Origin: Flavobacteriales bacterium
GTDB taxonomy: Bacteria; Bacteroidota; Bacteroidia; Flavobacteriales_D; Sanyastnellaceae
DNA length: 64,000 nucleotides
Reading direction: 5' to 3'
Assembly (NCBI GenBank): GCA_947442505.1
Contig: CANEVR010000001.1
Span: 30,305 to 94,304, forward strand
This document shows, one piece after another, positions 11,057-28,154 of the stretch. The notes under the pieces are model-generated. The model saw only the letters and a list, made by a program, of their open reading frames with translations. It was not told the DNA's origin and did no database searches. The first letter of the stretch is position 1. Each line of letters opens with the position of its first letter. The position numbers and the translations under genes were made by a program.

Positions 11057-11889
11057 TCACGCTGCTTGGTTTGTTTTAATATTGAATTGAAAGGTGCATC
11101 TTCATAGGGACTGAGGTCTTGCAACCTTTTGGAGTAAAAAGGGAAACGTTGGCTCAGCCGCAATTGACTCTCTTCTAAAGTCTCCGCATAATCGATTTGA
11201 ATATCTCGAATGGCTTTTTCAGATGCACGCTGAGCATACACAAAACTTTTGTTGTGTTTGATAACAACCATGAAAAAGAAAGGAAAAGCCACCATGATCA
11301 TCCAAAAACCAATCTCAGCGCGCTTTCCCGCATTTGACCACCATTGACGAAACACATAAAATGGATAATTGGCCTGCAGCAATTCTCTTTTCAAAGCCAC
11401 CGACATGTTGCTCTGTCCACCTTGTTTTTCAGCTGAAGCTTGAAAAACCTCCATTCGCTTCTGGCGATTCATGTCCTGAGAAGATGTGTGATGAAAAGCG
11501 CTGACCAGAGGAAAGGCCATGGAAACGGCAATGCATCCCACAAAAATCCAACGGACACCATTGGCAAAAGTGAACCATGAGCCGAAGGCAAGCACTTTCT
11601 TCCAGCGAGAAGCCTTCACCAAGGATACTTCATTCTTCTTGACCAATGGAAGAGAAATCATGGTAATGATGGCAATGCGCAAAATAGAGAAATGAATAAA
11701 CCCCATTAAAAACGCCATGGACACCACACCCAACCAAGACGCTGTCATCATCCAACCAAAATAACCATTGGACACTATAGACAGAACAATTACCGCCACA
11801 AACGACCATATGGTACAATGGTACATGAATCGTTCATTGCCGGATAACTGCGCAAACAAATCAGGATCTAACCCAATGATTTTCTTCAT
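11011..11889 (-). CDS. polytopic membrane protein, possibly a diverged DUF4407-like protein
   Basis: 292-aa ORF with at least five hydrophobic helices. The N-terminus (LDPDLFAQLSGNERFMYHCTIWSFVAVIVLS) resembles the start of DUF4407 proteins. ATGA overlap with the upstream gene at 11886..11889. Confidence 0.65.
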   Translation of the reverse strand: MKKIIGLDPDLFAQLSGNERFMYHCTIWSFVAVIVLSIVSNGYFGWMMTASWLGVVSMAFLMGFIHFSILRIAIITMISLPLVKKNEVSLVKASRWKKVLAFGSWFTFANGVRWIFVGCIAVSMAFPLVSAFHHTSSQDMNRQKRMEVFQASAEKQGGQSNMSVALKRELLQANYPFYVFRQWWSNAGKRAEIGFWMIMVAFPFFFMVVIKHNKSFVYAQRASEKAIRDIQIDYAETLEESQLRLSQRFPFYSKRLQDLSPYEDAPFNSILKQTKQREWGTDVSWNQWVKAL

Positions 11890-13127
11890 GCCTTGGGCGT
11901 TGTGTTGTCCTCTTGGTAGAAACGTTCAGGGTGATCATTCAACTCTTTGACTTTCTTTTGCGACCACACCCCAATAATCTTCTTGGACAAATCTTCTTGG
12001 GCCTTCAATTTTTCGACTTTTTCTTTTCGGTCATTTTCGACTTCCAAGAAATTGGTCTTTTCAATCAACACCATGCCATTGCGACCTTCAAAAATTTGGT
12101 CCTCTTTCACAATACCATTCTTCACATACATTCTGTAGTTGTAATTTTCAACCATGTAATCGTATGGTCCTTTGTTCATCATCATCTTGAAGAAAATAGG
12201 ACCCATCTCGATGGACAAGAAAATGAGGGTTAGGGCTATACCCAAACCAAAGCCGATTTCATGTGCAATTTCGATGCGCTCCAATAAACCATCCAGATTC
12301 TCTGCGTTCTTTTTATTATCAACGTTCAATTCCTTTTCTTGATCCGCCAACTTCTGATCCCGTTGTTTTTTAAGACCACTCAATTCTGCAGCATGCTTTT
12401 GATCATAGGCTTGAACATCTTTGATTTTCTCATTCTTAAAAACCTCTAGCTGCTTGGCTCTAGGACCGTAACCTGCCTCACCTGCTCTTCCTTGCATTTG
12501 ATCCAAATATTCCTGCTCTGCATCTTTTTGACGTTGAACCAGCACGTTGCGATCGTCCTCCAATTTCTTGATGTCCTTATCGATCAGGATAATTTGCTCT
12601 TTGAACTTGGCATAGGTATTCTTGTTGAACTCGTCCAATTTCTCTTGTTGCTTTTTACGCAACTCCACATTGATTTCGGTCTCGATGATTTTCAATTCCA
12701 GTGGTTTGGAAATCGTAATACCCAGAATCAAGGCAATGATCAAACGAGGAACGGCTTGACCAAATTCTTTTAGTGTGATGCTATCCGTTCCATCCCCTTT
12801 ACCGGTGCTGGAGACGATGAAGCGATCGAGATTAAAAATCAATGCGCCCCAGCACAAACCAAAAACGGCCGAACCAATCATCCACCCTGTTGAAGAGACA
12901 TCATCCCCGGCCATGCCTTTGGGACCAAAAGCGGTATTGAAAGCGAAACCTCCCGCAAAGGTGGCCAATAGACCGGTAGAAAAAACAATGCCGCCAATTC
13001 CTGCATATTTGACGCGGTCTTGGGCCGGAGAGCGCATCAGGAAAAACTGATCGGCACCTGCGCACCACCACAAAAAACGGGTGATGAAATTGACTTTTTG
13101 TGTGGGATATTCTTGTTGATTAATCAT
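11886..13127 (-). CDS. DUF4407 family membrane protein with a central coiled coil
   Basis: Motifs FLWWCAGADQFFLMRSPAQDRVKYAGIGGIVFSTGLLA, NLDRFIV and PRLIIALILGITISKPLEL, followed by a ~150-aa Lys/Glu/Gln-rich coiled coil and another TM helix. I chose the start at ATG 13127 (MINQQEY) because it forms an ATGA overlap with the upstream ORF stop (13124..13127). The longest ORF reaches 13211. Confidence 0.8.
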   Translation of the reverse strand: MINQQEYPTQKVNFITRFLWWCAGADQFFLMRSPAQDRVKYAGIGGIVFSTGLLATFAGGFAFNTAFGPKGMAGDDVSSTGWMIGSAVFGLCWGALIFNLDRFIVSSTGKGDGTDSITLKEFGQAVPRLIIALILGITISKPLELKIIETEINVELRKKQQEKLDEFNKNTYAKFKEQIILIDKDIKKLEDDRNVLVQRQKDAEQEYLDQMQGRAGEAGYGPRAKQLEVFKNEKIKDVQAYDQKHAAELSGLKKQRDQKLADQEKELNVDNKKNAENLDGLLERIEIAHEIGFGLGIALTLIFLSIEMGPIFFKMMMNKGPYDYMVENYNYRMYVKNGIVKEDQIFEGRNGMVLIEKTNFLEVENDRKEKVEKLKAQEDLSKKIIGVWSQKKVKELNDHPERFYQEDNTTPKA

Positions 13128-13726
13128 ATGGTTTGAATAAATTGACGAATAAAAATTTCTGGATTTACATTTTCCTCTAGGGCCTGTTCGCTCAATTCTC
13201 CCACTGGCCAATCACATGCCACAGAAGGGGGACTGGCTATATCGTTCAATTGACACTGAGGCAAAACCCAATCGGTAGATGGCGTAACAACATGACAAGG
13301 GGGAATAGTTTCGGGAGTCGCAATTGGGGCCGTTCTGCAAGACACATCAAGGAACTGAGGTTCATGTTCAGCCATCGACCAATCCGACGGCAACACTTCC
13401 AAATGTTGCACCTCCCAACGCACCACTTTTCTTTTGGGAAAAGAAATGAGAAAAGGAAAGAAGAACAAGGTGGCTCTGGGAGAATTAAAATTGGCCAGGT
13501 TCTGAAATTGGTCGTTGCCTTTTTTGACAAACCACCTTTTAAATCGATATCCTCTTCCTGGTCTTTTGTACCAGGGCTTAGACTGCCCATTGCGATAGTA
13601 GACCAACACCCACCGAGCATCAGAGGTCCATGACAAAGTAAAAAGTTTGTCGTGAAAGCAATGCGAAGGGGCATCGATCTGTCTCATCATGAACTCAAAT
13701 AAACAAAATTCGATGAAAAAAGACAA
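13124..13726 (-). CDS. hypothetical protein (up to 200 aa), first gene of the coupled operon
   Basis: The ORF's TGA overlaps the ATG of the DUF4407 gene (ATGA), which supports this frame over the alternative ORF 13246..13674. The start may be the MMRQ methionines at ~13690. No recognised domain. Confidence 0.5.
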   Translation of the reverse strand: MSFFIEFCLFEFMMRQIDAPSHCFHDKLFTLSWTSDARWVLVYYRNGQSKPWYKRPGRGYRFKRWFVKKGNDQFQNLANFNSPRATLFFFPFLISFPKRKVVRWEVQHLEVLPSDWSMAEHEPQFLDVSCRTAPIATPETIPPCHVVTPSTDWVLPQCQLNDIASPPSVACDWPVGELSEQALEENVNPEIFIRQFIQTI

Positions 13727-13857: not shown

Positions 13858-16800
13858 TTACTCCTTGATGCATAAAACTGGGAAACCCATTCCCCTGGGG
13901 TAAGATTCCCGTATCATTTTATCCGTCCTCATTTCATATGCATATCCATTTAAACGACCTTCAGAAGAAGTCCACCAAGCGTGATTGGGCGAAATACTAA
14001 AAGTACCCGTTTCTTTTCTTCTAGATCCAAGATTCCAACCCTTTGAAGCCGCTAATTTTTCTTTAGCCACTTCTTCATCTCCAAAGAATGTGATAAGATT
14101 TGACCAGTCCTGAGCATCCGCTATTCGCCATCCATGTGGAGCCAATCCACGCTCGTCATTAACCGCATACCAATTGTATAACCTTCCTTCTTCTTTGCCA
14201 ATAGACTCATCATTCTTGTAGTAACACCATGCAGGTTGTCCTTCTTCGTTTGCCTTGACCCAATCCGATTTGTCTTTGGCATGAGGTATCAGGTCTCCAT
14301 TTCTAAAAACCGCATTATCTAAATTATCTTGAGCCCAAAAGACATCAGTCTGACCTTTCATTTTTTTCCCTAAAGGAATTTTAACGGTAGCCATGTTTTC
14401 CGGCTCCATGTCCAACTGACTCGGCGCTTTGCCTTTTGTGATTTTCTTCTTTTCGACCTCATTCACACTCTCCTTTGTGGGAACAGGCGGCTGGATATCT
14501 AATGAAATATTGGGGACATTTGGTCGATTAGCAATATTATTTAACTCACCATGTTGACTTTCTGAACCCGAGTTGGATTTTGGTGTCTCACTTTTTTTCA
14601 ATGGAGTCTCGCTTGCCTTAAGAATTTCCTTATTGAATTTAATGGTGTAGTGCTGAAAAACTTTAGGAACATTTGGAAGAGGGTTCCAAATCCTGAAGGA
14701 GGGCTCTTCAGTCCATTTATAATTGGATTTATAAAATGGTACCTTAAGTTCCCTTGAATTTAGTTTGCCTCCAGCTGAGCGTATTGTCGTGTTAATTTTA
14801 ACATCTTCTCTCTCCATATAATCCTTTATATCTCGTTTGGATTGCTTTAACTTGCTGTCCACCCAGTTTATTAAAACCTTCACATCTTCAGGACATTCAT
14901 CTTCAAGGTCTAGGGAAAGCTTAAATAAATCCTCATAAAATTCATTTACTCTGCCCAAAGCACCTTTTGCCATAGCGATATTATAACGTGCAATCAAAAC
15001 ATAATTTCTGAAATATTTTACTTTTTCCCAAAATTCAATTGCCAGAGGAAAATCCTCTGAATAAAAAGAAATCGCACCAAATAAAAAATTATGACGATCT
15101 TTATCCCAAATAATATTGGATTCTTCAAATAAAATTCTGTTAAACCTTTTGGTTTCGATAATCTTTTCCTCAATCCCATCAATTTCCCTTGAGATGACAT
15201 GTAGTAATAAAATATCTTCCAAATAAAAAATCTCATTCAAATGAGACAATAAAAAAATCTCTTGATTTTTAGATTGATGATCTACAATTCCCTTTTTGAA
15301 CTTATCCCTTCTCCCATTGAAATAAGCATACTCCTCACGAATACTGGACCGATAATCCCAAATCATATTTTCCGAATCACCTGAGCCCAACTTTTTCATC
15401 TTTAGAAAAATTAAATTCCGCCTTATAACTATTGCCTTAAAATCAGAAATTTCATCCATTAATATCAATGAGTTTATCCAATTCTCTTCGTTGTAATTAA
15501 GATGAACCCCTACAATTTCTGCAAACTCCACATTCTTCATTTCACCTATAATTTGAGTCAAACCAAACACATTTGAATTCTTATTCAATTGCGTTGAAAT
15601 CGTAGTAATAAAAAACTTGATTCGTCTAATTCCAACATTTTCAATTAGTAGTTCTTTAAACCTTAGCTTGAGAATATTCAAAGAATAATATGCAAATAAT
15701 ATTACCAAGAAGATTACGGACCCAATTGCAAAATAAATATCAAGCAGCAAAAAAACTCCCACAGAAACACTAAGAAAAGCTGAAAATGAAAGAAGCATCC
15801 TTAACTTTCTTTCCAAGTTGAATCTATTTATATCAAATAATTTTAACAGTTGCCAACCAATACCAAAATCTGGTGCCAAATAAAAATACTGTGGTAGAAA
15901 ACTAATAACCATCCTAAAAAACAAATTGTATTGCACCTTATCTTTTCTTTTCACAGCATCATGAAATAAAAAAACAATCGATTCGTAAACGACACCCACC
16001 AATATTTTAGCCTCTTCATTTGATAGAACCGAAAAATCGGAATTGCGCAATTCAATGATTCTGTTGTGAAAGAAAATGAGAGATTCACGATCCGATACAT
16101 TCTTCAGTTTAGCGCTTAACCCAGACCCAAAATCATAATCTGAAATTTGTTCATCTTTTTCAATTTGCAATTCTTTTTCTAATTTCCTTGCTACCAGCAT
16201 CTCCTCATACCACTGTTGAATACCAACTTTCTCATCTTCCATCATTTCTTCCAAAGCAGCAGTTTTACTTTTGAGGTAATTCAAATAAATGGGGTTGGCC
16301 ATTTTTTTCCAATCTTCATAAGGAAATCCTGATAAATCAGTAATATTATCAACCTCAATTGTCTGAGATTCCGAACTCAAATAATTTTGAAATACGCCTT
16401 TGTCTCCATTCCGTTGATTCCAAAATACCAAAGAGTAATTGAGTCCCATGTCATCCTCACTTCTGATTCCTAAGACAAATGGCATCAGGCATAATTCGCT
16501 ACCGTCCAAAGACCATTCTTCATTGTTATAGACTGAATCAGGTTTAATGACAATAAAGTGTTGATTTAAATTGGACAGACCTTTTGTATTGATAATTCTC
16601 GCAGCGCTTATCTCATTCGCGTCAGCCACAATCAAGCTTGTTTTCTTGTAAAACGGAGAATTAAGGATAATTTCAAAACAAGTTTTAATCTCTGAGATAT
16701 GATCCTTGTTCAATACAATGGAAGCATGTGCATCTTGATTACGAATCTTAATCAATTTTTGCAAATACTCCTGGGTTTGATCATAATTTTTAGCAAAATC

Positions 16801-17100
16801 AGTCCATAAAGAGTTTTCTTCCTGTGATTTCAGTATGATCCTATTGACCATAGTCGACATGGCATTACAAAAGCCCAATGACGGTGGCTTTTGATACATT
16901 TGAACCAATTGAACCCTCAGGTTCATAGGAATCTCACTTTTCAGCTCCTTTAGCAACCATCCAGTATGAAAAGCAGCATTGAACTTAACACAAGCCTCCA
17001 GTAAACCTTTAAACATATTTTTTTGTACATCTATACTTTTTGACCTTCGTAACTCTTGGAAAGCAGCATGGAAAGGATACTCTATTCTGATTTTACTCAT
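13858..17100 (-). CDS. 1080-aa protein: N-terminal HEPN-like module, central TM hairpin, helical region, C-terminal FISUMP domain
   Basis: The N-terminal module is paralogous to those of the two STAND genes (PPSLGFC ... IKIRNQDAHAS, with R120-x4-H125 at nt 16726..16743). Two adjacent TM helices lie near aa 435-480 (LLSFSAFLSVSVGVFLLLDIYFAIGSVIFLVILFAYY). The C-terminus has FWAQDNLDNAVFRNGD, PAWCYYKND, GRLYNWYAVNDERGLAPHGWRIADAQDW and GFPVLCIKE. No P-loop seen. Confidence 0.85.
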   Translation of the reverse strand: MSKIRIEYPFHAAFQELRRSKSIDVQKNMFKGLLEACVKFNAAFHTGWLLKELKSEIPMNLRVQLVQMYQKPPSLGFCNAMSTMVNRIILKSQEENSLWTDFAKNYDQTQEYLQKLIKIRNQDAHASIVLNKDHISEIKTCFEIILNSPFYKKTSLIVADANEISAARIINTKGLSNLNQHFIVIKPDSVYNNEEWSLDGSELCLMPFVLGIRSEDDMGLNYSLVFWNQRNGDKGVFQNYLSSESQTIEVDNITDLSGFPYEDWKKMANPIYLNYLKSKTAALEEMMEDEKVGIQQWYEEMLVARKLEKELQIEKDEQISDYDFGSGLSAKLKNVSDRESLIFFHNRIIELRNSDFSVLSNEEAKILVGVVYESIVFLFHDAVKRKDKVQYNLFFRMVISFLPQYFYLAPDFGIGWQLLKLFDINRFNLERKLRMLLSFSAFLSVSVGVFLLLDIYFAIGSVIFLVILFAYYSLNILKLRFKELLIENVGIRRIKFFITTISTQLNKNSNVFGLTQIIGEMKNVEFAEIVGVHLNYNEENWINSLILMDEISDFKAIVIRRNLIFLKMKKLGSGDSENMIWDYRSSIREEYAYFNGRRDKFKKGIVDHQSKNQEIFLLSHLNEIFYLEDILLLHVISREIDGIEEKIIETKRFNRILFEESNIIWDKDRHNFLFGAISFYSEDFPLAIEFWEKVKYFRNYVLIARYNIAMAKGALGRVNEFYEDLFKLSLDLEDECPEDVKVLINWVDSKLKQSKRDIKDYMEREDVKINTTIRSAGGKLNSRELKVPFYKSNYKWTEEPSFRIWNPLPNVPKVFQHYTIKFNKEILKASETPLKKSETPKSNSGSESQHGELNNIANRPNVPNISLDIQPPVPTKESVNEVEKKKITKGKAPSQLDMEPENMATVKIPLGKKMKGQTDVFWAQDNLDNAVFRNGDLIPHAKDKSDWVKANEEGQPAWCYYKNDESIGKEEGRLYNWYAVNDERGLAPHGWRIADAQDWSNLITFFGDEEVAKEKLAASKGWNLGSRRKETGTFSISPNHAWWTSSEGRLNGYAYEMRTDKMIRESYPRGMGFPVLCIKE

Positions 17101-17113
17101 GATATATTAATCT

Positions 17114-17121
17114 TACATTTG
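17114..17121 (+). promoter_or_regulatory. candidate Bacteroidota -7 promoter box (TAcaTTTG) for the 17182 gene
   Basis: Exact match to the TAnnTTTG consensus, 60 nt upstream of the ATG, in the 81-nt divergent intergenic region. Motif match only. Confidence 0.3.
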
Positions 17122-17181
17122 TAAATATAGTGAATCGAAAAAGATAAGATTCTCTATAAAACGAATACCCACATTTTAAAA

Positions 17182-20100
17182 ATGAGTTTCAAATGCACCA
17201 ACATTGAATGTACTGCACCGGAGAATAAAAAGGGCAGAGAATACCCTTCGGCCATGGAATGTCCATTTTGTGATGTTCCTTTGGTTGAATTTTCAAGTTT
17301 TAATGAGGTTGATTTACAACTTATCAATACACTCCCCTACATCATCGCCTATCCCCTTAAAAGAACGCTGGAAGAAAAACATCCCTGGACGAAAATCAAT
17401 TTGTTCAAGGATACGTTTTTGAATTACCTAAAATATCTGGGATTGCTGACTGCATCCGAATTCTTCAACAGCCCCTTCAAAGACAAACGCATGGTGGCCT
17501 TGTTTCAGCAATCATTGTCAGAGCCTTCCTTTGGAACATGGAACCAATACATTAGAGAAACTTTGGCATTCTTGAAAGAAAAAGAACACTCCTTCTTTAT
17601 TCCTGAATTGGCGGAGCACTATGAAAAAGTGGAGACAGGTAAGAAAAGAAAATTGTACAAAGGCGAAATTGAATTTATCGATGGCAATGGAGATGTCCAA
17701 ATCAAAAAACAAGAAGCTACCGCAATTGGAATGCTTATCAATTTCAGAAACCGTTATTTGGGACATGGATTGACTTTGGACGCAGACACGGCTGAAAAAC
17801 TGTGGGCAGAATATTCTCCTATGTTTTTTGAAATTCTCAGAGAGCTGAAGTTCACGCTAGATTATAAGATGTACAAGTATGAAAATGATGAGACGTTTCT
17901 CTTGCAATCTGCCCAAATCGTTCAAAAAGAAAACAACAGAAAAAGCAATCAAGTTTGGTTGGAAAGTCCTACGGGTGAGGTGATGGATATACTTCCCTTT
18001 TACGTCGTTCCGGGAGAGTTAACGATCCGAAAAGAAGATAAGGAGCAAATATTGGCTTATGAATCCTACACAGGGAAGTCCATCAAGTTCTTTAGTCCGG
18101 AAGGTACTGAGAAGCAAACCTCAGGAAGAATTCTCGAAAAACTGAATTTGCTTTTGCGCGACAAGCAGAAAGAAAAAGCCTATTCACCCGAAGAATTTAC
18201 CAAGGAAATTTTTCTTTCCCGAGTTGCCGAGGAGAACAAACTCATTCTCGATACGCTCATTGCAGAGAAGAAAGTCATTCCGGGAGTTTATGTCCACCGT
18301 GAAGACATGGAGATCAAACTCCGCGAATGGATTGGTGCTCGAGCAAACATTTTCGTTATTGCTTCAGAAGCTGGTAGCGGAAAAACCAATTTGTTGGTGG
18401 AAATACAGAAGCAATACGCGGAGCGTGAATTGCCGACATTACTCATTCGAGCCGGCCGAATGGAGAAAACAACCATTCATGCACAGTTGTGCTACCTGTT
18501 GAATATTGATGAACATTGTAATCTAAACCAATACCCTGCCATTGCCGGGACGCAAGAGGCACCCACCTTTGTCCTGATCGATGGACTAAACGAGGCACTC
18601 GAATCGGAAAAACTTTGGACCGAACTATTTGAAATCTCCAAACACTTTGAACCCGGTAGTTTGAAGTTTGTGATTACAAGTCGGGCGAACTCCAAGGTAG
18701 GTTTAAATCGTTATACATTCGATGCGAACGACAAGCATTTTATTTATGGTAAAAATAACCAGCGCGAAAATGACCTAGGCGACTATGCACACTGGCTAAC
18801 AACTCTCAATATGGCAGAAATAAAATCTGCCTGGGAAAACTATTCGCAAAATGAAAGAAACAAATACAAACCCTTATTCTTATTTGATGATCTTGCTGCA
18901 TTTGATCGCGCATTATACAACCAAATTAGTAACCCTTTAATATTGAGACTATTTCTAGAAACCTATCACAATAAATCTCTTCCGAAGAAAGGTAACAAAC
19001 AACTAAATATATGGGCTGACTGGCTTGCAAACTTTTCTGAGGATGAAATTATTTTTTTAAAGTATCTGTCTCAGGCCGTTTGGGATAAAGGAGTAAACGA
19101 ATTATTATTAGATGATTTACTTAGCAAAGCGAATCTTAAGCCATACTTAACCACCGATATTATAAACGCTCCATATCATCGCCTTAAAAACATTGGTTGG
19201 ATAACACGATTTACTAAAGAATTGAATGTTTATTTATCTTTTACAGTTGAAGGGGCACTGCTCTATATTATGGGGGCAATCTTGAAGGAACAACAATTAT
19301 ATACGGATATTGAAATCATTAAAAACACTCTCAAAAAAGGATCGAAAATTCAACAATCTGCTATTGAAGTTTTGTTAAGTCAACTTTCACTATTGAATGA
19401 CCTCAAAATTCCGCGTATTCTTACTGATGCAGGTCAAGAATATCAATACGCTTGTGTCAATCCTTTGATTTTGTATATACGAAATTATGGAGTGAAATCT
19501 TTTGTAGACTTTTTTTTCACTCCGTCAAACGTTAACTACTGGTATTCGGCTCTATTATTATCTAATACATTATCTGATCTAGAGGAAAAATTGTTGAGAA
19601 AGGAGTTTTTAATTCAATTAATGCCTTTAAATACTTTTGTTTCCAGACCCGAAATTGAGATAGGAATTAAAACTTGTGATTTGTTGGATTGGGAGCAAGC
19701 CCATAATTACGTAAGTATTATTGATAAAAATTGCAACTCAAATGATTTATCTACTGTCAAAGTTGAACTTGATTCGTTTTTATTGGTTGAGTTAGGTCAT
19801 CTTGAATTACATTATGGCAACTATGATCAAGCATTAAACTACTACAAAAAATCTCTTGAAATAGATGAAAATAAATTTGGCAAAAATATAGATATAGGTA
19901 CAACCTACTATTTTATTGGAACGGCCTATAGCGCAAAAAGCGAGTATATAAAAGCAATTGAATATTTCGAAAAAGCAATTAATACTTATCGAATTTTTCT
20001 AGACGAAAATCATATTTTCTTTTTTCGAATTTATAATGACCTTGGATTACTATTAGGCTCAATACAACAAAATAATAAGGCTCTATTAACACTCGAAAAA

Positions 20101-21348
20101 TCTCTTCAAATAGCCATTAAAAATCATGGAACACAGCACTCAAGTGTCGCCGCAGCTTATAATAATTTGGGGGTGGTTTGGCACTACATGAGTGAACGTG
20201 AAAAAGTCCTACCTTACTTTGAAAAGTGTCTTGAAATAACTTTAGCTGTATATGGCGAAAATCATCTAATAGCTTCTGATTCATATTTAAATATTGGTCA
20301 TGAATGGAAGTTATTGGGGAACAACGAAAAGGCCCTAAGCTTTTACGAAAAATCCTTAAGAATAAGACTCTTAAAATTAGGTGACAAACACCCTAAAATT
20401 GCAGATACATATTTAAAAATCGGAGATCTATTTAATGTCGATATGCCTATTAGCTCAACAATCGAATATTACGAAAAAGCCCTAAATATTTATTTAGATA
20501 ATTTAGACCCAAACCACGATTCTATTGCAAACCTATATAATAGTATGGGAAATTATTATAGGAAAATAAGTGAATTTGACAAGGCCATAGAATTCTGTGA
20601 AAAGAGCTGTGAAATTTACATAAATACTTTTGGAGACCAGCATCCCTGGGTTTTTTCAATTTACAATAATATAGGGAAAATCTATCGTGATAAAGGTGAT
20701 AAACTCAACGCGTTAGATTTTCTTCTTAAAGGTTTAAATGGCAAATTAACAACTTTAGCTGATAATCATCTTTCTTTAACTCATTCGTATAATTCGATAG
20801 CCATTCTCTATGAAAATCTTGAAGATTATGATAAAGCTTTGGATTATTATGAAAAATGTCTACAAATTGAACTTAATAACTTTGGAGATAACAACATAAA
20901 TGTAGCAAATTCTTATAAAAATATTGGTAATGTGTGGGAAAGTAAGGGCCATTATTCTAAAGCTATAGAATTCTTTCAAAATGCCTTGGATATAGAAATA
21001 AAAGTTTTGAAGGAGGATCATTCAGAAGTAGCGATGTTGTATTTAGCCATTGGAGAATGTTACCAAAATTCAAATGATTTTGATTCAGCAATTCAAGCCT
21101 TTAAAAGTGGATTTAGCTTTTCCAAGACAGGACGATTCCCATATCGTATCGCAGAATGTATGGAAAATCTCAATGAATATGATAGTGCATTTAGATACTT
21201 TTTACAATCAGCAGAAATTAAAATAGAAGATCATGATTTAGGCATTGAAGCTGAGGCAACACAAGAATCGATTAAGGCTTGTATTCGGCTGGCGAAAGAA
21301 TTGGGTAAGGAAAGTGAGTTGCCGGAATGGATAAAGGAGAACTATTAG
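17182..21348 (+). CDS. STAND/NACHT-type NTPase: Zn-ribbon, HEPN-like module, P-loop NTPase, C-terminal TPR array
   Basis: CTNIEC...ECPFC four-Cys ribbon at the N-terminus. HEPN-like module (EPSFGTW ... INFRNRYLGHG, with R189-x5-H195 at nt 17746..17766). Walker A SEAGSGKT at nt 18364..18387 and Walker B-like FVLIDGLNEA. From about aa 860 there are roughly 12 or more TPR units of the kinesin-light-chain type (YYKKSLEI, YFEKAINT, YFEKCLEI, FYEKSLRI, YYEKALNI, YYEKCLQI). Confidence 0.9.
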   Translation: MSFKCTNIECTAPENKKGREYPSAMECPFCDVPLVEFSSFNEVDLQLINTLPYIIAYPLKRTLEEKHPWTKINLFKDTFLNYLKYLGLLTASEFFNSPFKDKRMVALFQQSLSEPSFGTWNQYIRETLAFLKEKEHSFFIPELAEHYEKVETGKKRKLYKGEIEFIDGNGDVQIKKQEATAIGMLINFRNRYLGHGLTLDADTAEKLWAEYSPMFFEILRELKFTLDYKMYKYENDETFLLQSAQIVQKENNRKSNQVWLESPTGEVMDILPFYVVPGELTIRKEDKEQILAYESYTGKSIKFFSPEGTEKQTSGRILEKLNLLLRDKQKEKAYSPEEFTKEIFLSRVAEENKLILDTLIAEKKVIPGVYVHREDMEIKLREWIGARANIFVIASEAGSGKTNLLVEIQKQYAERELPTLLIRAGRMEKTTIHAQLCYLLNIDEHCNLNQYPAIAGTQEAPTFVLIDGLNEALESEKLWTELFEISKHFEPGSLKFVITSRANSKVGLNRYTFDANDKHFIYGKNNQRENDLGDYAHWLTTLNMAEIKSAWENYSQNERNKYKPLFLFDDLAAFDRALYNQISNPLILRLFLETYHNKSLPKKGNKQLNIWADWLANFSEDEIIFLKYLSQAVWDKGVNELLLDDLLSKANLKPYLTTDIINAPYHRLKNIGWITRFTKELNVYLSFTVEGALLYIMGAILKEQQLYTDIEIIKNTLKKGSKIQQSAIEVLLSQLSLLNDLKIPRILTDAGQEYQYACVNPLILYIRNYGVKSFVDFFFTPSNVNYWYSALLLSNTLSDLEEKLLRKEFLIQLMPLNTFVSRPEIEIGIKTCDLLDWEQAHNYVSIIDKNCNSNDLSTVKVELDSFLLVELGHLELHYGNYDQALNYYKKSLEIDENKFGKNIDIGTTYYFIGTAYSAKSEYIKAIEYFEKAINTYRIFLDENHIFFFRIYNDLGLLLGSIQQNNKALLTLEKSLQIAIKNHGTQHSSVAAAYNNLGVVWHYMSEREKVLPYFEKCLEITLAVYGENHLIASDSYLNIGHEWKLLGNNEKALSFYEKSLRIRLLKLGDKHPKIADTYLKIGDLFNVDMPISSTIEYYEKALNIYLDNLDPNHDSIANLYNSMGNYYRKISEFDKAIEFCEKSCEIYINTFGDQHPWVFSIYNNIGKIYRDKGDKLNALDFLLKGLNGKLTTLADNHLSLTHSYNSIAILYENLEDYDKALDYYEKCLQIELNNFGDNNINVANSYKNIGNVWESKGHYSKAIEFFQNALDIEIKVLKEDHSEVAMLYLAIGECYQNSNDFDSAIQAFKSGFSFSKTGRFPYRIAECMENLNEYDSAFRYFLQSAEIKIEDHDLGIEAEATQESIKACIRLAKELGKESELPEWIKENY

Positions 21349-21367
21349 TATAATTGTAAAAAAAATT

Positions 21368-21931
21368 ATGAGAGCAAAAACATACAAAAGCACAAACGGT
21401 TTTACCTCACCGCAATCACTTTCCGATTTTGGAATTGAAGTTTCTAATGGAAAAGAAACAAAATACTTAGGTTTAGAGGAATTTAATTTTTGCTCAATCC
21501 TAAAATCATATTCCTTCAATGGAAAGCATATCGCTTTTATTCCTTGTTTCAGCATCAATAGAGGAGCTGCTATTATTGAAGAATTAGACCTTTTCTTTCA
21601 TGATGGCCAAGGTGTTACCTTACACTACGCTACTCTTCACGGAGTTACTCAAATTCAAGCTCCGGAAATCCCAGCGATACGTAAAGATTTAATTGCTGTG
21701 GGTCTTCCAGAATTCGTTCATAACTCTATTGAATTTCAACATAATTACGGCCCATTGTTCAATCCTGCGATTAAAATTTGGAAAAAGTGTTTTGACACCA
21801 ATATTATCACTGCCAAAAGAACCGATGATAGGTTTGTTGTCAATACCTTTTATGAGAAAGTGGTTTTACATAATCCAAAAAGAAAAGTTAATTGGACTAA
21901 CTTAAAACGTGCAAGACAACTTCATCCATGA
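21368..21931 (+). CDS. hypothetical protein, 187 aa, downstream partner of the STAND-TPR gene
   Basis: The ORF starts 19 nt after the STAND-TPR stop on the same strand. No recognised motif. Confidence 0.6.
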   Translation: MRAKTYKSTNGFTSPQSLSDFGIEVSNGKETKYLGLEEFNFCSILKSYSFNGKHIAFIPCFSINRGAAIIEELDLFFHDGQGVTLHYATLHGVTQIQAPEIPAIRKDLIAVGLPEFVHNSIEFQHNYGPLFNPAIKIWKKCFDTNIITAKRTDDRFVVNTFYEKVVLHNPKRKVNWTNLKRARQLHP

Positions 21932-21960
21932 ATTCATAGTCCTAGTAACATTAGAGTTCT

Positions 21961-22695
21961 TTATGCATCAGCATTTACGATAAAACCCAAATTCTTTTCT
22001 TGAAGTAAATCATTCAGGTTTTCTATTTTAAAATGAACAACCTGGCTCCAATTTAATATGTTTCGATCCGTGCGTCTAGCCAAAGCTTCATTAAAAGGAA
22101 TTTTATACAATTCTAGTAATTTGTAGTTTGGATCAAAAACCACAATTACAATATAGTTTATTATTGCGTCTGTTGAGTATTCAATTGGTGTCCATCTCGC
22201 ATTTGTCGTTAAAGATTTTGCATGTGATTTTACTTGAAACTTAATACCATCAGCATTTTCTAAATCCCAAAATTGATTGATTCCGTTTGCAGATATATTA
22301 GCATCAAATATTACACTTGCTACCCACTCGCCCAATTGACCTGTAATATCCTTTTGGTTTCTCAATATTCCAACTTCTTTCAATGCATTATAAGACTCAA
22401 TAAAAGATGTGAATAATACAGACATCATTTCAAAACTTCTATTTGAAAAGTTTACGTTTTGATTACTGTCAATTCGTTGAACAACATCCTCTTCAGCTCC
22501 ATTATAGGCCTCCGGTGAAAACAAAAGAATTTCATTACCCACAACTTCCGATTTCCATCCATCTGCAAGCAGCGAAAAATACAAAGCATGGGTTATTTTG
22601 TTTGTGGGTCCGACGTTTAACCTCCACCACTTTTTCAAACCAATTTTAACGGCATTACCTTCTTTTATTGTTATTACAAAAAATTTCTTAATCAT
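21961..22695 (-). CDS. hypothetical protein, 244 aa, downstream partner of the 1815-aa STAND gene; possible PD-(D/E)xK-like nuclease core
   Basis: Starts 11 nt after the stop of the 1815-aa gene. The C-terminal half (GQLGEWVASVIFDANISANGINQFWDLENADGIKFQVKSH) resembles small restriction-endonuclease-fold proteins (E ... D ... xVK). This is a weak, motif-level call. Confidence 0.6.
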   Translation of the reverse strand: MIKKFFVITIKEGNAVKIGLKKWWRLNVGPTNKITHALYFSLLADGWKSEVVGNEILLFSPEAYNGAEEDVVQRIDSNQNVNFSNRSFEMMSVLFTSFIESYNALKEVGILRNQKDITGQLGEWVASVIFDANISANGINQFWDLENADGIKFQVKSHAKSLTTNARWTPIEYSTDAIINYIVIVVFDPNYKLLELYKIPFNEALARRTDRNILNWSQVVHFKIENLNDLLQEKNLGFIVNADA

Positions 22696-22706
22696 AATTT
22701 CTATTC

Positions 22707-25700
22707 TTAATTCAAGTCTTTAATTCTAATTTCAAACTCCTCCTCCGTAATCTTCCCCTTAGCCACCTGCTTAGCCCAGAGTTCAATTTGCTCCCGGTCG
22801 TCTTCATCGGCGATTTCGTGAAGCCATTCGATGAGGTTGGTGGAGGATTGAACTATATTATTTTTTGATATTAAATAAGTGCATGCCAAGTCCAAAGCCC
22901 ACTGAATTTCTAGTGTACGATTAAGTCGTTCTAAATTCGGGTTATTCTCCTCAATTAAAATAGCATGAGCTGCATACTTATGAAGGAGAATTTCTATACT
23001 ATCTGAATCATGGGCCAACATGCGAAGAGCGATTTGTAAACAATCTTTATCTGCTTCATTTTCTTTCAAGGCCATAGTCCAGCCCTTCAGATAATGCAAA
23101 CGAACGTCGCTATTGTTAAATACATTGGCCGTGAGTAAAGAGGATAGAAAGCCTTGTCTTTCATAAACAGATTCGGCAACTGCATACAGACATCTATGTT
23201 GCTGCAATGTATCTTCAATCTCTAGAGTGACAATCTCTAAATCAATCCATTTTTCATCTTGAGACATAGTCTTCAGCAAAAATTGTATCGCCTCTATCTT
23301 ATCATTAGATCGTTTATCAATGAATTTAACTACCATAACACCATACTCATAATTACCCAATTGTAAATACAACTTCGATATTTGCTTGTACTCAAAATCT
23401 CTTGCCGTATCCCTAGGAATCAATTCCATCCAAACAACATGTGATGCCTTTTCTTCTAGTTCAATAGCAAAGTTAAAATTGTAATCTTCCTTAGCTTTGA
23501 CTGCCAACTTCAAATAAATAATTGAAAGACTATAATCATCTTTGACTTGTTCTATTAATTTGATTTGAAACTCTGTCAAACAATTGGCATCTTTATTATA
23601 TGTCTCTACTATAAACTCACTTAAGAAAAAGAACTTATCTTCATCATCCAATTCCGAAATTGTTTTAAAAAACAATTCAATATCACCTTGGCGATATATT
23701 TCTTTTGCGATGTCTCCTTTGTAAATATCTATATTACCAAATTCAATACAATCAATCAACTTCAACGCATCTTTGAAATGACCTTGAAACGCCATTTCCC
23801 TACTTAAAGTTTGAAACACATAAAATCTTGCTTCTTTATTTTCAATTTGATTCGCCATCTCCTGTGCACGAATCAAGCAATCATTAGCTTCAAAAAAGCA
23901 ATTTAATTCATAATAAATAGTGGAAATCTTAGATAAGAAAATGGAAATTATCTCATTAGAATCCGTGAGAATAATATCAGCAATAGCACGCTCCACTAAC
24001 GCTATTTGCTTCGAACTGCGCAATACATGAAGAACTAATTCAATTTCTTCCCTCTTATAATCCTTTAGATCACAATAAAATGAAAAAATATAATTAAATG
24101 TAATTTCGTAGTCTTCATTTTTTATACAATCCTCAATATTTTTTTTCAATTCGTTCAACATTTTTTTATCATTGCTATGAGCATGTATAAAATCAAAAGC
24201 CTCTTGCCTTCGTCCTGAAAGAAATAATCGTCTAAATAGAACACTTTTCCCTTTGGATACATATTCACCTGATTCGAATTCAAATCTAGATTCAAGAAGA
24301 AGAAACACTAGATTATTGGATGCTACATTCTCTCCACACTGAATAAAGATTATTGCCAAATCCCCCAATATTGATTTACATTCTCTTGATAATAGAAATT
24401 GTTTTCCGCACTTTTCAATCAAATCCAAAATGAATTTTGCAGCATAAATTACCCGAGATTTTTTGATCAGCAGAATTGCACTTTGAATCGCCAAATCTAT
24501 CCTTTGTGGGTATGAACTAATTGATTCAATAGAAGTTAATGCTTCATTTAAAAACAAATCAGAATAGTATTTCATCTCTTGCCTCAACAGTTCTTTTGAA
24601 ATTTTATTTAGCAAAACAACCCTTTCTCCATTCTCGAGTTTCTGGATTAATTTCAAAGCATTATCAAAGTCCCCTTTTTCAGCTAAGTCGAATATTGCCA
24701 TTTCTAAGAATACCAAAAGGCCATCGGATATCTCTATTTCGTCAAATAATTCTATAGCCCTATGAACAGCCTCATTTTTTATAAAAGCAATTGCAATAAA
24801 ACACTGTATTCTTCTTCTAAAATAACCCTTTACAGCAACCGTACGTTTCAGCTTTTCTCCCGGTAAAAAGTAATCATCGATTTGAGCTGCCAGCGGTATA
24901 ACTATTTCTAAAATTTCAATAGCCTTTGAATGAAATTTAACTTGACTAAGATTCTTAGCTAATTCCAATAAAATATTACAACGGTAAAAGATGATTTCCT
25001 CTAATTCAACGCATAATAAAACTTCATTTATTAGTTCATCACACCAAATAGCGTCCAAGCCTATGATAAACGAAATTGCATTCGATCTATAATATGGCAT
25101 TGTAACTAATCTTGCGTATCCAATAGCCTCTAAATAAATTGACCTATTATCTATAAAAATACTTTTAGCCTGAGAAAAAACAACCATTTCAGCCAAAGTC
25201 TTGCTCTTCCAAAAATTGGTATTTATAGATCTAGCTATTGAAAATGCAAAATCAACTTCCCCTAATTTTAAAAAGGCTAACGCCAACTCTTTCTGCGATT
25301 CGCCTCTATAGCCATTGTCTTGTAAATCATTTGATAATTTATTTATTTCATCCAATACAGAAAAGGCATCTTCTTTGCAGAATTCATTAATTCTTTTACA
25401 AATCGCTATTATTGCGGCACTCTTCGAACCTTCATTTAGTATCTTGCTCATGCACTCCAATGCACGAGACCAATCACCAATGTCAAAAAAATGAATAACT
25501 ATCTTAGTCAATTCATCGTGTAAATAACTGTCAGTAAAGGAATAGTGACCAAAACTTAATATTAATTGAACACAGTCATTTAACTGGGCAATTGCCTGAC
25601 TTTTTAAATTCAATTTTTTTAAGTGATTTATTAAAAATTCTCTTTGATAAAAGTTGTAATTCTCAGATTGTGATTCAATTACAAATTTGTAAACTTCAAG

Positions 25701-28154
25701 CTCAAATAAACCATTTGGAGCGTCCAAATCGAACCAATTCAACCAATTATGGTCATATTTACCTTTCTTAAATAATATACGCCAATCTAAATCAGACAAA
25801 TCCAATTCGAACGCAAGACTGAGTACTATTTTAACGGGAAAAAAATCATTCCAATTCAGCACACTATGATCTGTTGGCAATTGCTCATCCAAATGGTTCA
25901 ACAACTTTTCAATTGCATCCTTCCTAAATGGCTTATCCTTGCTTTCCAATAAGGTGAGCTCCATCAAACAAAGCATGTACAAAATGAATTTACGCTGTAG
26001 GCCTTCTTTGTCTGCGCCTCCGAAGCTCTCAATCCTTTTCAACGCCAAATCAATTTCACCCGCAGCGACCATTGCCACAATCTGAGGAGCATCGTTGGCT
26101 TCTTCATATTTCAAATCAACCAAACACAAGGCCGCCTCCAATTGATCATCATAACGTTTGACATCGGATGCCTTCAACAAGGACAATCGGAAGAGTGCGT
26201 TGGTAGCTTCAAATCCCCTAAGCACTTTCTTCTGTGTCGCCTGGTACTCCGTATCATACATCAACTTCAATAGAGTTTCACCATGTTGCTCTTTGGCGCT
26301 CTCGTGCAAATGCGCTGCATAATGTTCCAGTGCATATCGCTGTTCCCAATCGCCTTTCAATTCCTTCCATCCAGCACAAAAAGCAATAATTCTTTGTTGT
26401 GCTTCTGACACTTCTCTGGCGTGCTCTTTCACCAAATATTCTCGGAAACTTTCATGAAACAACTGATAATCCAACACCTCCTCCGTGAGTGGATTTTCAT
26501 ACAGCACTTCCTTGAGCGTACTCCCAATTCGCATGAGTGTCGCGCTGCCTATCCCATTGATCAATCCCAAATGTGACATGGTCAAATAATCCTTAGCGGC
26601 CGCAAAGGTGAACAAACCACTCAATAAGGCTTCGCCATCAACATCGTTGGCATAGCGGAGCAAAATGGCTTTGTAATATTCGTCAATCTTGGAGGGCAAT
26701 GCCTGAACATCATTCAAAGCGATTCCATTATTTTCAATGGCATCACACAGCAATTTTAAGTACAAAGGATTTCCCTGGGAACGCTGCTGCACAGCATCAA
26801 TCCACAAACTATCTCGCTCTACTTCGTATTTATTGGCTACCTCATAAATCAGCGCACGAATATCCTCCTTACCCAACCCAGTAAGTTCTAATTTTTCATG
26901 TTGCTCCGGAGGCAACGTACCCCATAGATCGTCGATACTCTTGTGTCCACCGGGCCTTGAACCATAGATGATCAATACATTCTCGAAGTTCTCTCTTGGC
27001 AGGTAAACCGGAACATTGGCCTCGGTCCCCTCATCCAAACCATCAATCAAGAAAATGAGCTTCTTGCCTTGGCTGTGTTCATTCCACTGTCGCCATTTGC
27101 TGAAAAGTTGATATTGCAAATCAAAAATCAATTTGCCTTCCGCACGAATTTCTCTTCCCTGAGGAAACAATTCATCCGTGCGCTTGATGAGGTATTGAAA
27201 CAAATACTCAGCTTGCGCCTGTTGGGTTCCCCGACGAATAAAATATTCAACAATGGAGAAATTTTGAGCTTCCTTAAATCCCTTGAGATCTTTAAAGAAC
27301 TGAGCAATCAATGCAGACTTACCGATACCCGGATTCCCCTGAATGGAGAAATACCCTTTGTTCTTTTCTACAACAAAATCCAAGAGCCGCTTACGCTCGA
27401 TGGTGCGCCCCTTAAATGATTCTGTAAGTTCCTCGATCCGTTGAAAAAACTCATTATTCCCAGATTTCTTCCATTCGTTCAAAGGAAGATGAGACAGAAA
27501 TTCTTGGTAAAAATCCTTTTCCCGATAATGTTTGCCCAAAGGATAATTGAGTAATCCAATCTTATCATTCTTAATATCATTGAAGAATGCTAATGAGGCT
27601 TCAGTTTTTTCATCTCTGAAAATTAAAATAGGATGCAACGAAAGTTCAGTACTAATGGAACACAGGCGCACCTTCCCTTCTCTTACATCCAACGATGATT
27701 CTTGCAGCCACTGTGATTGCAAAAGCTTCAACAAGAATAATTCGAACTTTACTATATCTGCTACACAAGCCTCATCCGATGGTGTAGCACCGTGCGCATA
27801 TCCATTTCGAAAGGCAATAACATTGGTCTTATCGTTATTCAATGCCTTATCCAATGCTGCAAATTCTTCAGGAAAATGGGAAATGCTCCACTGAAATTGA
27901 TCTTTCTCGAGCTCCTCAAATAAAACGCGACTAAAAAGTTGCCAAGTTCCCAAAGATGGCGTTCTTAATCCTTGAGAAAGTAGTCCTTTTGCAGCATCGC
28001 TCAAGTTGTTTTGTCGCACATATTCAGAAATAATGACAGCAGTATGAGTTTTAATGATGCTTTCAAAAAGATCAATCATTCGGTGCACCTTGCGAAAGGG
28101 CTGGGACTCTTTTTGGTATAAGTCGTATAGAAATGTCAAATGGGGAAATCTCAT
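22707..28154 (-). CDS. 1815-aa STAND/NACHT-type NTPase: HEPN-like module, P-loop NTPase, ~1200-aa helical repeat region
   Basis: HEPN-like module (TPSLGTW ... IAFRNGYAHG, with R116-x4-H121 at nt 27792..27809). Walker A GNPGIGKS at nt 27315..27338 and Walker B IFLIDGLDEG. The long C-terminal alpha-helical repeat region has no clean TPR consensus. Confidence 0.9.
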   Translation of the reverse strand: MRFPHLTFLYDLYQKESQPFRKVHRMIDLFESIIKTHTAVIISEYVRQNNLSDAAKGLLSQGLRTPSLGTWQLFSRVLFEELEKDQFQWSISHFPEEFAALDKALNNDKTNVIAFRNGYAHGATPSDEACVADIVKFELFLLKLLQSQWLQESSLDVREGKVRLCSISTELSLHPILIFRDEKTEASLAFFNDIKNDKIGLLNYPLGKHYREKDFYQEFLSHLPLNEWKKSGNNEFFQRIEELTESFKGRTIERKRLLDFVVEKNKGYFSIQGNPGIGKSALIAQFFKDLKGFKEAQNFSIVEYFIRRGTQQAQAEYLFQYLIKRTDELFPQGREIRAEGKLIFDLQYQLFSKWRQWNEHSQGKKLIFLIDGLDEGTEANVPVYLPRENFENVLIIYGSRPGGHKSIDDLWGTLPPEQHEKLELTGLGKEDIRALIYEVANKYEVERDSLWIDAVQQRSQGNPLYLKLLCDAIENNGIALNDVQALPSKIDEYYKAILLRYANDVDGEALLSGLFTFAAAKDYLTMSHLGLINGIGSATLMRIGSTLKEVLYENPLTEEVLDYQLFHESFREYLVKEHAREVSEAQQRIIAFCAGWKELKGDWEQRYALEHYAAHLHESAKEQHGETLLKLMYDTEYQATQKKVLRGFEATNALFRLSLLKASDVKRYDDQLEAALCLVDLKYEEANDAPQIVAMVAAGEIDLALKRIESFGGADKEGLQRKFILYMLCLMELTLLESKDKPFRKDAIEKLLNHLDEQLPTDHSVLNWNDFFPVKIVLSLAFELDLSDLDWRILFKKGKYDHNWLNWFDLDAPNGLFELEVYKFVIESQSENYNFYQREFLINHLKKLNLKSQAIAQLNDCVQLILSFGHYSFTDSYLHDELTKIVIHFFDIGDWSRALECMSKILNEGSKSAAIIAICKRINEFCKEDAFSVLDEINKLSNDLQDNGYRGESQKELALAFLKLGEVDFAFSIARSINTNFWKSKTLAEMVVFSQAKSIFIDNRSIYLEAIGYARLVTMPYYRSNAISFIIGLDAIWCDELINEVLLCVELEEIIFYRCNILLELAKNLSQVKFHSKAIEILEIVIPLAAQIDDYFLPGEKLKRTVAVKGYFRRRIQCFIAIAFIKNEAVHRAIELFDEIEISDGLLVFLEMAIFDLAEKGDFDNALKLIQKLENGERVVLLNKISKELLRQEMKYYSDLFLNEALTSIESISSYPQRIDLAIQSAILLIKKSRVIYAAKFILDLIEKCGKQFLLSRECKSILGDLAIIFIQCGENVASNNLVFLLLESRFEFESGEYVSKGKSVLFRRLFLSGRRQEAFDFIHAHSNDKKMLNELKKNIEDCIKNEDYEITFNYIFSFYCDLKDYKREEIELVLHVLRSSKQIALVERAIADIILTDSNEIISIFLSKISTIYYELNCFFEANDCLIRAQEMANQIENKEARFYVFQTLSREMAFQGHFKDALKLIDCIEFGNIDIYKGDIAKEIYRQGDIELFFKTISELDDEDKFFFLSEFIVETYNKDANCLTEFQIKLIEQVKDDYSLSIIYLKLAVKAKEDYNFNFAIELEEKASHVVWMELIPRDTARDFEYKQISKLYLQLGNYEYGVMVVKFIDKRSNDKIEAIQFLLKTMSQDEKWIDLEIVTLEIEDTLQQHRCLYAVAESVYERQGFLSSLLTANVFNNSDVRLHYLKGWTMALKENEADKDCLQIALRMLAHDSDSIEILLHKYAAHAILIEENNPNLERLNRTLEIQWALDLACTYLISKNNIVQSSTNLIEWLHEIADEDDREQIELWAKQVAKGKITEEEFEIRIKDLN

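Follow-up and report, generated by a model that had tools for sequence, protein, structure and literature searches.

A divergent HEPN-like head module carried by two STAND receptors and one membrane-associated protein in a Flavobacteriales bacterium

Proteins combining HEPN domains with STAND NTPases have been described before. A survey published in 2013 listed HEPN+STAND+TPR, HEPN+Zn ribbon (ZnR), and HEPN+ZnR architectures with two transmembrane (TM) segments; its examples include Npun_F6454, MED222_16016, and Desac_1927 from the Abi2/Swt1 clade and a B. cereus protein, gi 229028907 (Anantharaman, Makarova, Burroughs, Koonin & Aravind 2013, PMC3710099). For bacterial NACHT proteins, HEPN RNases have been named among the effectors found at the N-terminus (Kibby et al. 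bioRxiv 10.1101/2022.07.19.500537), and 589 STAND clades were treated in PMC13581612. We analyzed three adjacent large genes, designated A, B, and C, in a 64,000-nt stretch of contig CANEVR010000001.1 from a Flavobacteriales bacterium (GCA_947442505.1); this whole stretch is hereafter called the window. All three genes encode one common module, the head, which is most likely a divergent HEPN-type RNase effector, as judged from its conserved motif, concordant weak profile matches, and a predicted structure. The explanation that we regard as best, and as reasonably probable, is that B and C are Avs/bNACHT-like intracellular receptors with a divergent HEPN head and that A is a membrane derivative.

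The locus shares with the proteins of the 2013 survey an N-terminal Rx4-6H HEPN or HEPN-like domain before STAND and TPR regions, the existence of ZnR and TM versions, and a predicted defensive RNase function (PMC3710099). It differs in that the heads of the window were below threshold on every Pfam HEPN model, the 2013 examples being compared by description only, and in that these heads possess a PSLGxW motif, an obligatory beta domain of ~60 amino acids (aa), and three helices. The effector–NTPase–sensor layout, the NACHT/NPHP3_N NTPase, and the variable sensor arms are common to the locus and to bNACHT and Avs proteins (bioRxiv 10.1101/2022.07.19.500537; PMC13581612). In both cases a receptor domain also occurs on non-STAND proteins: the sensor in Avs7/Dsr1 and the head in the window family. 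The window genes, however, gave only partial matches to the Avs2 (E 3e-8, ~100 aa) and STAND_TPR models, belong to a Bacteroidota-centered lineage, and are known here from sequence alone. The layout is less novel than the sequence-only reading of this DNA had held, because HEPN–STAND–TPR proteins were already catalogued (PMC3710099; bioRxiv 10.1101/2022.07.19.500537), and joining a HEPN RNase to a STAND receptor is a known concept. What is new is the head family itself, consisting of a HEPN-like helical domain with PSLGxW and a beta domain, which was undetected by the profile libraries used (Pfam, NCBIfam, and PADLOC). Its breadth across phyla, the variants with IF3_N, SAM, or tandem heads, the recurrent pairing of B-type and C-type genes, and the membrane/FISUMP chassis are also new. 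An operon of two STAND genes, with an inactive STAND fused to HEPN/GT4 (PMC8195603), was considered and set aside as a different, CR-ATPase-like STAND family.

Gene A (13858..17100, minus strand) encodes 1080 aa, gene B (17182..21348, plus strand) 1388 aa, and gene C (22707..28154, minus strand) 1815 aa. They were delimited by open reading frames (ORFs), translations, and Pfam matches, and for B also by PADLOC matches. A and B point away from each other, and B and C point toward each other, the small genes o187 and o244 lying between the latter two. The head module occupies 16231..17100 (minus strand) in A (aa 1–290, with a HEPN-like helical part and a beta part), 17314..18171 (plus strand) in B (aa ~45–330, with an insert of ~25 aa ahead of the RN motif), and 27405..28154 (minus strand) in C (aa 1–250).

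Pairwise BLASTP similarity of the heads was marginal (E 2e-5 for B–C, 0.006 for A–C, and 0.044 for A–B), and their mutual identity was ~20%. Profiles were built from homologues collected separately for each of the three heads. The B and C families were matched by hhalign with 98.8% probability and E 4e-17 over 166 columns, and A matched the C family with 96.7% probability and E 3e-10 over 200 columns, running through the beta region. The direct profile–profile comparison of A and B was without significance, and the homology of these two heads is therefore transitive through C. A hidden Markov model (HMM) of the joint alignment retrieved A, B, and C at E 1e-64 to 1e-101 (A at 4.5e-64 over aa 8–291, B at E 1e-87) and matched no other ORF in the 64-kb window. 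A coincidental resemblance, with short motifs in unrelated helical regions, would agree with the weak BLASTP values and with the A–B profile result, but it is refuted by the profile–profile E values over 166–200 columns, by the joint alignment, and by the single three-type HMM, and its probability is practically negligible. Judged by these comparisons, A, B, and C carry one ancient common module of ~280 residues with homology far beyond chance, in agreement with what the sequence-only reading had claimed for the three N-termini.

In the joint MAFFT alignment of 30 sequences of all three types, exactly four columns were invariant: G69, R116, N117, and H121 (C numbering). K35, L63, P66, S67, W71, I113, G122, P175, and F190 were near-invariant. 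Conservation was also counted in 141 head copies from the top 150 representatives (50% identity) of an exhaustive HMMER search: G was present in 141/141, R in 141/141, N in 140/141, H in 140/141, and W in 137/141 copies, K36 and P67 in 135/141 each, and E32 in 102/141. The arginine and histidine, which the sequence-only reading had named as the residues whose loss in homologues would make the motif coincidental, are thus conserved. The motif strings given in that reading were exact: PPSLGFC (aa 72–78) and IRNQDAHA (aa 119–126) in A, EPSFGTW (aa 114–120) and FRNRYLGHG (aa 188–196) in B, and TPSLGTW (aa 65–71) and FRNGYAHG (aa 115–122) in C. The motif itself is R120-N-Q-D-A-H125 in A (Rx4H, 16726..16743, minus strand), R189-N-R-Y-L-G-H195 in B (Rx5H, 17746..17766, plus strand), and R116-N-G-Y-A-H121 in C (Rx4H, 27792..27809, minus strand), the three being aligned on the invariant R, N, and H columns. 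The spacing is accordingly R-N-x3-H in A and C and R-N-x4-H in B.

The structure of C residues 1–250 was predicted by AlphaFold2 (AF2) with the 30-sequence alignment as input; the model had a pLDDT of 92.3 and a pTM of 0.90, and the helical part alone had a pLDDT of 92.4. Seven helices were predicted (4–15, 19–48, 53–62, 68–84, 94–105, 112–118, and 127–145), followed by an all-beta unit of ~60 residues (strands 154–212), which corresponds to the short beta-rich region already noticed in the sequence, and by three short helices (215–245) leading into the NACHT domain. R116-N117 formed the last turn of helix 112–118, and H121-G122 were located in loop 119–126, directly before the long helix 127–145. 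An Ex3K motif, E31-x3-K35, was found in helix 19–48; the corresponding segment is EACVK in A, and B-type heads have L in place of E and keep K.

In HEPN domains the Rx4-6H motif was placed where helix-3 ends and the loop leading to helix-4 starts, R is usually followed by N, D, or H, and many families possess Ex3[KR] in a preceding core helix, as well as an insert that separates helices 2 and 3 (PMC3710099). At the level of sequence and of the secondary structure in the AF2 model, the placement of R-N and H, the polar residue after R, and the upstream Ex3K all match this description. Helices 53–105 with the family-specific PSLGxW would correspond to the insert between HEPN helices 2 and 3.

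No Pfam, NCBIfam, or PADLOC model was above threshold on any head when full proteins and the three heads were scanned, which accords with the earlier statement that the head could not be assigned to a named HEPN family; HEPN_Swt1 was absent among the sub-threshold matches as well. Below threshold, 21 diverse helical parts were scanned against Pfam one at a time, and only two families were matched by more than one member: HEPN_RiboL-PSP (5/21 members, best E 4.8e-4, 20.5 bits with a cutoff of 28.4) and HEPN_MAE_28990 (5/21 members, best E 0.01, 16.5 bits with a cutoff of 26.8). These matches map to the C-terminal motif and the last helix of the profiles. The best PDB match of the 21-sequence profile was a HEPN toxin, 8xdj (HI0074-type HEPN-MNT toxin, E 0.008), with RN..H in register, and the same register was found by hhalign against an alignment of the HI0074 family, made of eight genes taken from plasmids (pairwise E 0.0026, 41 columns). 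Among nine PADLOC families with weak matches, eight were HEPN-bearing: AbiD, Csx1, five CARF_HEPN models, and Cas13-ApeA. The HI0074/HepT toxins of HEPN-MNT modules (PDB 8xdj, 8yuf) are thus the best sequence match of solved structure, with (I)xxRNxxxH and an amphipathic helix in register; they differ from the heads as stand-alone toxins of ~140 aa paired with a nucleotidyltransferase antitoxin, and the similarity extends over ~40–80 residues. The profile matches are weak singly and strikingly concordant, and they look typical of inter-family HEPN similarity. Together with the near-invariant R, N, and H and the position of the motif in the AF2 model, they support the proposed HEPN-like Rx4-6H head and make membership in the HEPN superfamily quite likely.

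Several results weigh against this interpretation. No HEPN model was reached at a curated threshold, and the matches, of 12–20 bits, essentially cover the motif and one helix. The Pfam HEPN matches came from C-type heads only; the A and B heads of the window and seven other non-C-type heads gave none. A profile of C-type sequences only did not retrieve the HEPN toxin or anything relevant from PDB, and a broad profile of the mixed alignment retrieved P-loop proteins only, via the NACHT start included in it. The hhalign probability against the HI0074 family was just 11.5%. Foldseek searches of PDB and BFVD with the whole head and with its helical part gave no match at E<1: the whole AF2 head against PDB returned small beta barrels (PWWP, beta-trefoils), and the helical part against PDB and BFVD returned generic helical bundles, all with E>1. 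The HEPN fold was thus neither confirmed nor refuted by Foldseek, and the profile searches speak for it at the sub-threshold level. The helical domain has seven helices versus the minimal four-helix HEPN bundle; the head of B and its relatives has other small domains in front of it and is therefore not strictly terminal; and PADLOC assigned no defense system and no named Avs or bNACHT type to the locus. MtlR/YggD chains also appeared in the Foldseek results (E ~5) and were not counted as evidence; MtlR is counted among the HEPN families in PMC3710099.

The absence of a Foldseek match to HEPN and the sub-threshold score of every HEPN profile also bear on another possibility, namely that the head is not an effector RNase but a non-catalytic regulatory, ligand-binding, or oligomerization module before this NACHT clade. 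R, N, and H would then bind a nucleotide, RNA, or a partner protein, and killing would be performed by other proteins, such as the restriction endonuclease-like o244. The position of the head, always directly adjoining the NTPase, fits such a role, and ZnR, SAM, and IF3_N domains ahead of the head in the B lineage could be the real adaptors or effectors. Substrate-binding, non-catalytic HEPN-like domains are known; however, they typically lose the motif (PMC3710099), whereas near-absolute R, N, and H together with ExxxK have the appearance of a catalytic signature. Moreover, no other candidate effector domain was found by Pfam in B and C, the head occurs in A without any NTPase, and most related loci lack o244 and o187. 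A non-catalytic head is, in our opinion, quite unlikely, and the divergent HEPN-type RNase effector remains the preferred assignment.

The receptor chassis of B and C were well recognizable. Protein B consists of a Zn ribbon, the head, a STAND NTPase, and a TPR arm, and protein C of the head, a NACHT domain, a helical-repeat arm, and a conserved tail. The NACHT NTPase of C (26835..27344, minus strand; aa 271–440) matched PF05729 with E 7.6e-8 and 32.8 bits (cutoff 26.7) and NPHP3_N with 29.4 bits (cutoff 24.8); its Walker A motif is GNPGIGKS (nt 27315–27338) and its Walker B motif LIDGLDE. In B, Walker A is SEAGSGKT (18364..18387, plus strand; aa 395–402), with a Walker B-like LIDGLNE ~65 aa downstream. 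The NACHT assignment is weaker for B than for C, because NPHP3_N scored 21.8 bits in B, below the cutoff, and the PADLOC Avs2 model gave a partial match (aa 377–481, E 3.3e-8). Another partial PADLOC match was to the STAND_TPR model (E 8e-8). The TPR arm of B (19789..21345, plus strand; aa ~870–1388) was recognized as TPR_12 in 8 stretches (Pfam, E 3.4e-70). C-terminal of the NACHT domain, C has an arm of ~1300 aa composed of all-alpha repeats, with sub-threshold Pfam matches only. The C-terminal repeat arms of B and C probably act as sensors. Accordingly, the NACHT, NPHP3_N, and TPR_12 matches agree with the earlier description of two carriers as STAND/NACHT NTPases with TPR or helical-repeat arms, and both Walker A positions had been given exactly. 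In B the head is not the outermost N-terminal part of the protein, since a Zn-ribbon-like segment, CxxxxC...CxxC (17194..17274, plus strand; aa 5–31), precedes it; B-type homologues retain this segment, and others have SAM instead. The idea of B as a degenerate “helper” STAND was rejected, because it retains both the lysine of Walker A and the aspartate of Walker B.

Orthologues of C were 50–72% identical to it over aa 1 to ~800–1000 and 34–58% identical over the last ~170 aa, and the middle ~830 aa could not be aligned with them. This variable middle of the sensor arm (23235..25742, minus strand; aa ~805–1640) has a G+C content of 0.30–0.32 versus 0.39–0.44 in the 5′ part of the gene. It is followed by the conserved C-terminal tail (22710..23234, minus strand; aa ~1640–1815) with a SHOCT-like end. 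From the alignments, the recognition region of the sensor arm appears to have been replaced like a cassette, which is what one would expect of an arms-race receptor. An actively diversifying locus had been proposed on the grounds of three divergent heads; the diversification that was found lies in the central part of C's sensor arm, not in the heads, which at ~20% identity are ancient paralogues and not products of recent local duplication.

A mechanism can be proposed for the preferred reading, in which B and C are receptors with a HEPN-type RNase head. The C-terminal arm would bind a phage-derived ligand, and the NTPase would drive NTP-dependent oligomerization. The heads would thereby be brought together, and, as with other HEPN enzymes, two R-N-H motifs would jointly build a metal-independent RNase site. 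Cellular or viral RNA (candidates are tRNA, rRNA, and mRNA) would then be cut and the infection aborted. The HEPN fold, the RNase activity, the activation by oligomerization, and the antiviral role are all predictions. Proximity activation of the heads is suggested by likeness to RNase L/Ire1, Csm6, and the activation of Avs effectors. The RNase L/Ire1 KEN domain and Csm6/Csx1/Cas13 are similar in this mechanistic sense, with a HEPN site switched on by induced proximity, and the tandem-head relatives described below resemble the two-HEPN layout of Cas13. However, the sensors of these systems are kinase-like, CARF, or crRNA, and there is no detectable homology with the window proteins beyond the motif.

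The head is widely distributed. The exhaustive HMMER search with the joint profile against 1.84 billion 50%-identity representatives gave 2413 matches at E<=1e-3, 1070 at <=1e-10, and 277 at <=1e-30; since the profile held ~60 positions of the NACHT start, the weak tail of these matches may be NTPase-driven, and the top 150 matches all cover the head. A scan of species-representative genomes gave 46 loci and is biased toward C-type relatives, because it was made with C-only alignment patterns. The loci came mostly from freshwater Bacteroidota (Aquirufa, Flavobacterium, Chitinophagaceae, Crocinitomicaceae), and others from Planctomycetota, Verrucomicrobiota, Cloacimonadales, Desulfobacterota, and Bacillota, the last with three loci in one Neobacillus niacini genome and further loci in Clostridium and Paenibacillus. 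In public (NCBI) annotation, the members go by “AAA family ATPase” or “hypothetical protein”. The family is invisible to defense-system finders, since Pfam, NCBIfam, and PADLOC are silent on it, yet it has 277 representatives at E<=1e-30 across phyla. The head would thus define a large effector family missed by current annotation. With a profile of this head, many STAND proteins would receive a label, above all in freshwater Bacteroidota, in which defense systems are poorly charted, and the invariant R, N, and H with the PSLGxW signature are immediate targets for mutation.

Most representatives were head–NACHT–repeat proteins of 800–2100 aa. Canonical GxxxxGK[ST] was found in 101/136 representatives, and the B type has SxxxxGKT. 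Two heads in tandem in one chain were found in P0159, P0156, P0170, P0199, P0249, and P0121. The first copy is often without PSxGxW, mostly keeps RNxYxGH, and looks degenerate in P0249. Such double heads fit the requirements of HEPN enzymes, since HEPN sites usually need two domains. The translation-initiation-factor IF3 N-terminal domain (IF3_N, PF05198) was found above the Pfam cutoff ahead of the head in P0182, P0198, and P0202; besides the Zn ribbon of B, SAM_1/SAM_2 occurs in this position in some relatives. The IF3_N fusions hint at translation or RNA.

A B-type gene adjoins a C-type gene in 7/22 close C-type loci (L006, L008, L011, L016, L018, L019, and L020), which come from different Bacteroidota genera. 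The arrangements include B upstream of C with gaps of 29 nt (L008) and 171 nt, C upstream of B with an 8-nt overlap (L018) or a 326-nt gap, a divergent pair in one locus, and the convergent pair of the window with two genes between. No B-type gene was found in L012 and L015 despite full 10-kb flanks; several other unpaired loci have short flanks. The neighborhood of B-type and C-type genes is thus old, recurrent, and inherited across genera.

This adjacency raises the question of whether B and C, perhaps joined by A, o187, and o244, form one cooperating system, that is, a paired bacterial NLR with two different sensor arms and a common output via hetero-oligomerization or heterodimerization of the homologous heads. 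Besides the recurrence of the pair in different genera, including the 29-nt gap and the 8-nt overlap, such a system is consistent with HEPN active sites being normally two-domain, with the relatives having two heads in one chain, and with the recurrence of o187-like and o244-like genes after C-type genes. However, roughly two thirds of the 22 loci with C-type genes, including L012 and L015, lack a B-type gene in the available DNA, gene order and orientation vary, and a shared defense hotspot would also produce adjacency. Furthermore, both proteins have a complete P-loop, a sensor arm, and intact R-N-H, and neither looks like a degenerate helper. A cooperating pair is therefore unlikely. A stricter form, which we consider still less likely, is an obligate paired NLR in which B-type and C-type proteins co-assemble, their homologous HEPN-like heads heterodimerize into one RNase site, and two phage cues give one output; A would serve as a third, envelope-linked input or as a decoy, and the IF3_N-fused relatives would suggest that the target is the ribosome or initiator tRNA. 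Pairing concerns the relationship of the genes and not the function of the head, and it can be combined either with HEPN receptors or with a non-catalytic head.

In plants, paired NLRs such as RGA4/RGA5 and RRS1/RPS4 are encoded by side-by-side genes, one protein being the sensor and the other the executor. B and C, unlike these, both keep the head, the P-loop, and the sensor arm, and their pairing is a genomic observation in 7/22 close C-type loci. The B/C pairing, the cassette-like sensor middle, and the redeployment of the head in a membrane protein make the locus a tractable case for the modular assembly and diversification of bacterial NLR-like receptors.

Protein A has a different chassis, composed of the head, a helical region, a TM hairpin, a second helical region, a low-complexity linker, and a C-terminal FISUMP domain. 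FISUMP (13963..14343, minus strand; aa 920–1046) was recognized by PF09603 with E 3.8e-19 and 70.1 bits (cutoff 33.9) and by TIGR02145 with 47.9 bits (cutoff 41.65). A single long uncharged hydrophobic stretch was found at aa ~433–476 (15673..15804, minus strand; Kyte–Doolittle peak 2.63, together with direct reading of the sequence), and it is probably a two-helix TM hairpin. A has no P-loop, and no Walker A motif was found in P0253, its near-identical representative. The third carrier had been described as a protein without a P-loop and with a TM hairpin and a FISUMP tail, which the above-cutoff FISUMP matches and the hydrophobic stretch corroborate.

The chassis of A is rare. The search for homologues of the A head gave a single relative, P0133 (53% identity, L048 53-4555); among the representatives there is also the near-identical P0253. 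The hydrophobic stretch is the same in P0133. We propose that A, a rare derivative, arose when a C-like head was transferred to an NTPase-less, membrane-anchored chassis bearing FISUMP, and that in A the same head most likely acts under control from the membrane or envelope. P0133 is truncated after the TM hairpin by an IS3 insertion, and two pairs of IS3-family transposase genes (HTH_Tnp_1 + rve) come after it. The FISUMP domain is normally extracytoplasmic. A hairpin of two TM helices would leave the head and FISUMP of A on the same side of the membrane, and a FISUMP domain in the cytoplasm would be unusual.

A and B are separated by a divergent AT-rich intergenic region of 81 bp (17101..17181, by direct reading of the sequence). 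The promoter -7 consensus of Bacteroidota is TAnnTTTG. In the A/B spacer TAcaTTTG was found at 17114–17121 (plus strand), with B's start codon 61 nt further downstream; it fits this consensus and may be part of a promoter.

The two genes between B and C were analyzed as well. Gene o187 (21368..21931, plus strand; 187 aa) starts 20 nt after B and had no Pfam or PDB match. Its homologues (24–25% identity, E 1e-9 to 4e-11) directly follow C-type STAND genes, with which they overlap, in L015 (14610-15299) and L023 (5748-6410); o187 may be a conserved accessory gene. Gene o244 (21961..22695, minus strand; 244 aa) is located 12 nt after C and encodes an Eco15I/NhoI-like (methyl-directed) restriction endonuclease fold at aa 99–203, matching PDB 8q5m (E 1.3e-8) and PADLOC mREase_II (E 7e-7). 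A homologue of o244 was found after the C-type STAND gene in L023. It is either a neighboring defense gene or an accessory gene.

The interval has a G+C content of 0.32–0.36 versus 0.42–0.47 in its flanks. With this low G+C content and with genes of restriction endonuclease-like, GIY-YIG, BRCT, and LRR types, the neighborhood is compatible with a conflict island. Downstream of A, a tightly packed operon (8287-13726, minus strand; G+C 0.42–0.47) encodes a DUF4407 protein (E 3.9e-61), a 292-aa protein, an OmpA/MotB-like protein with weak PADLOC ZorB matches through its OmpA domain, and a 494-aa protein; it may be a separate membrane-associated system. On the same side, an LRR protein and a BRCT-domain protein are encoded at 5195-7611 (minus strand), with a weak PADLOC PDC-S48 match. 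On the other side of the locus, divergent from C, a 594-aa protein with a GIY-YIG nuclease domain is encoded at 29035-30819 (plus strand).

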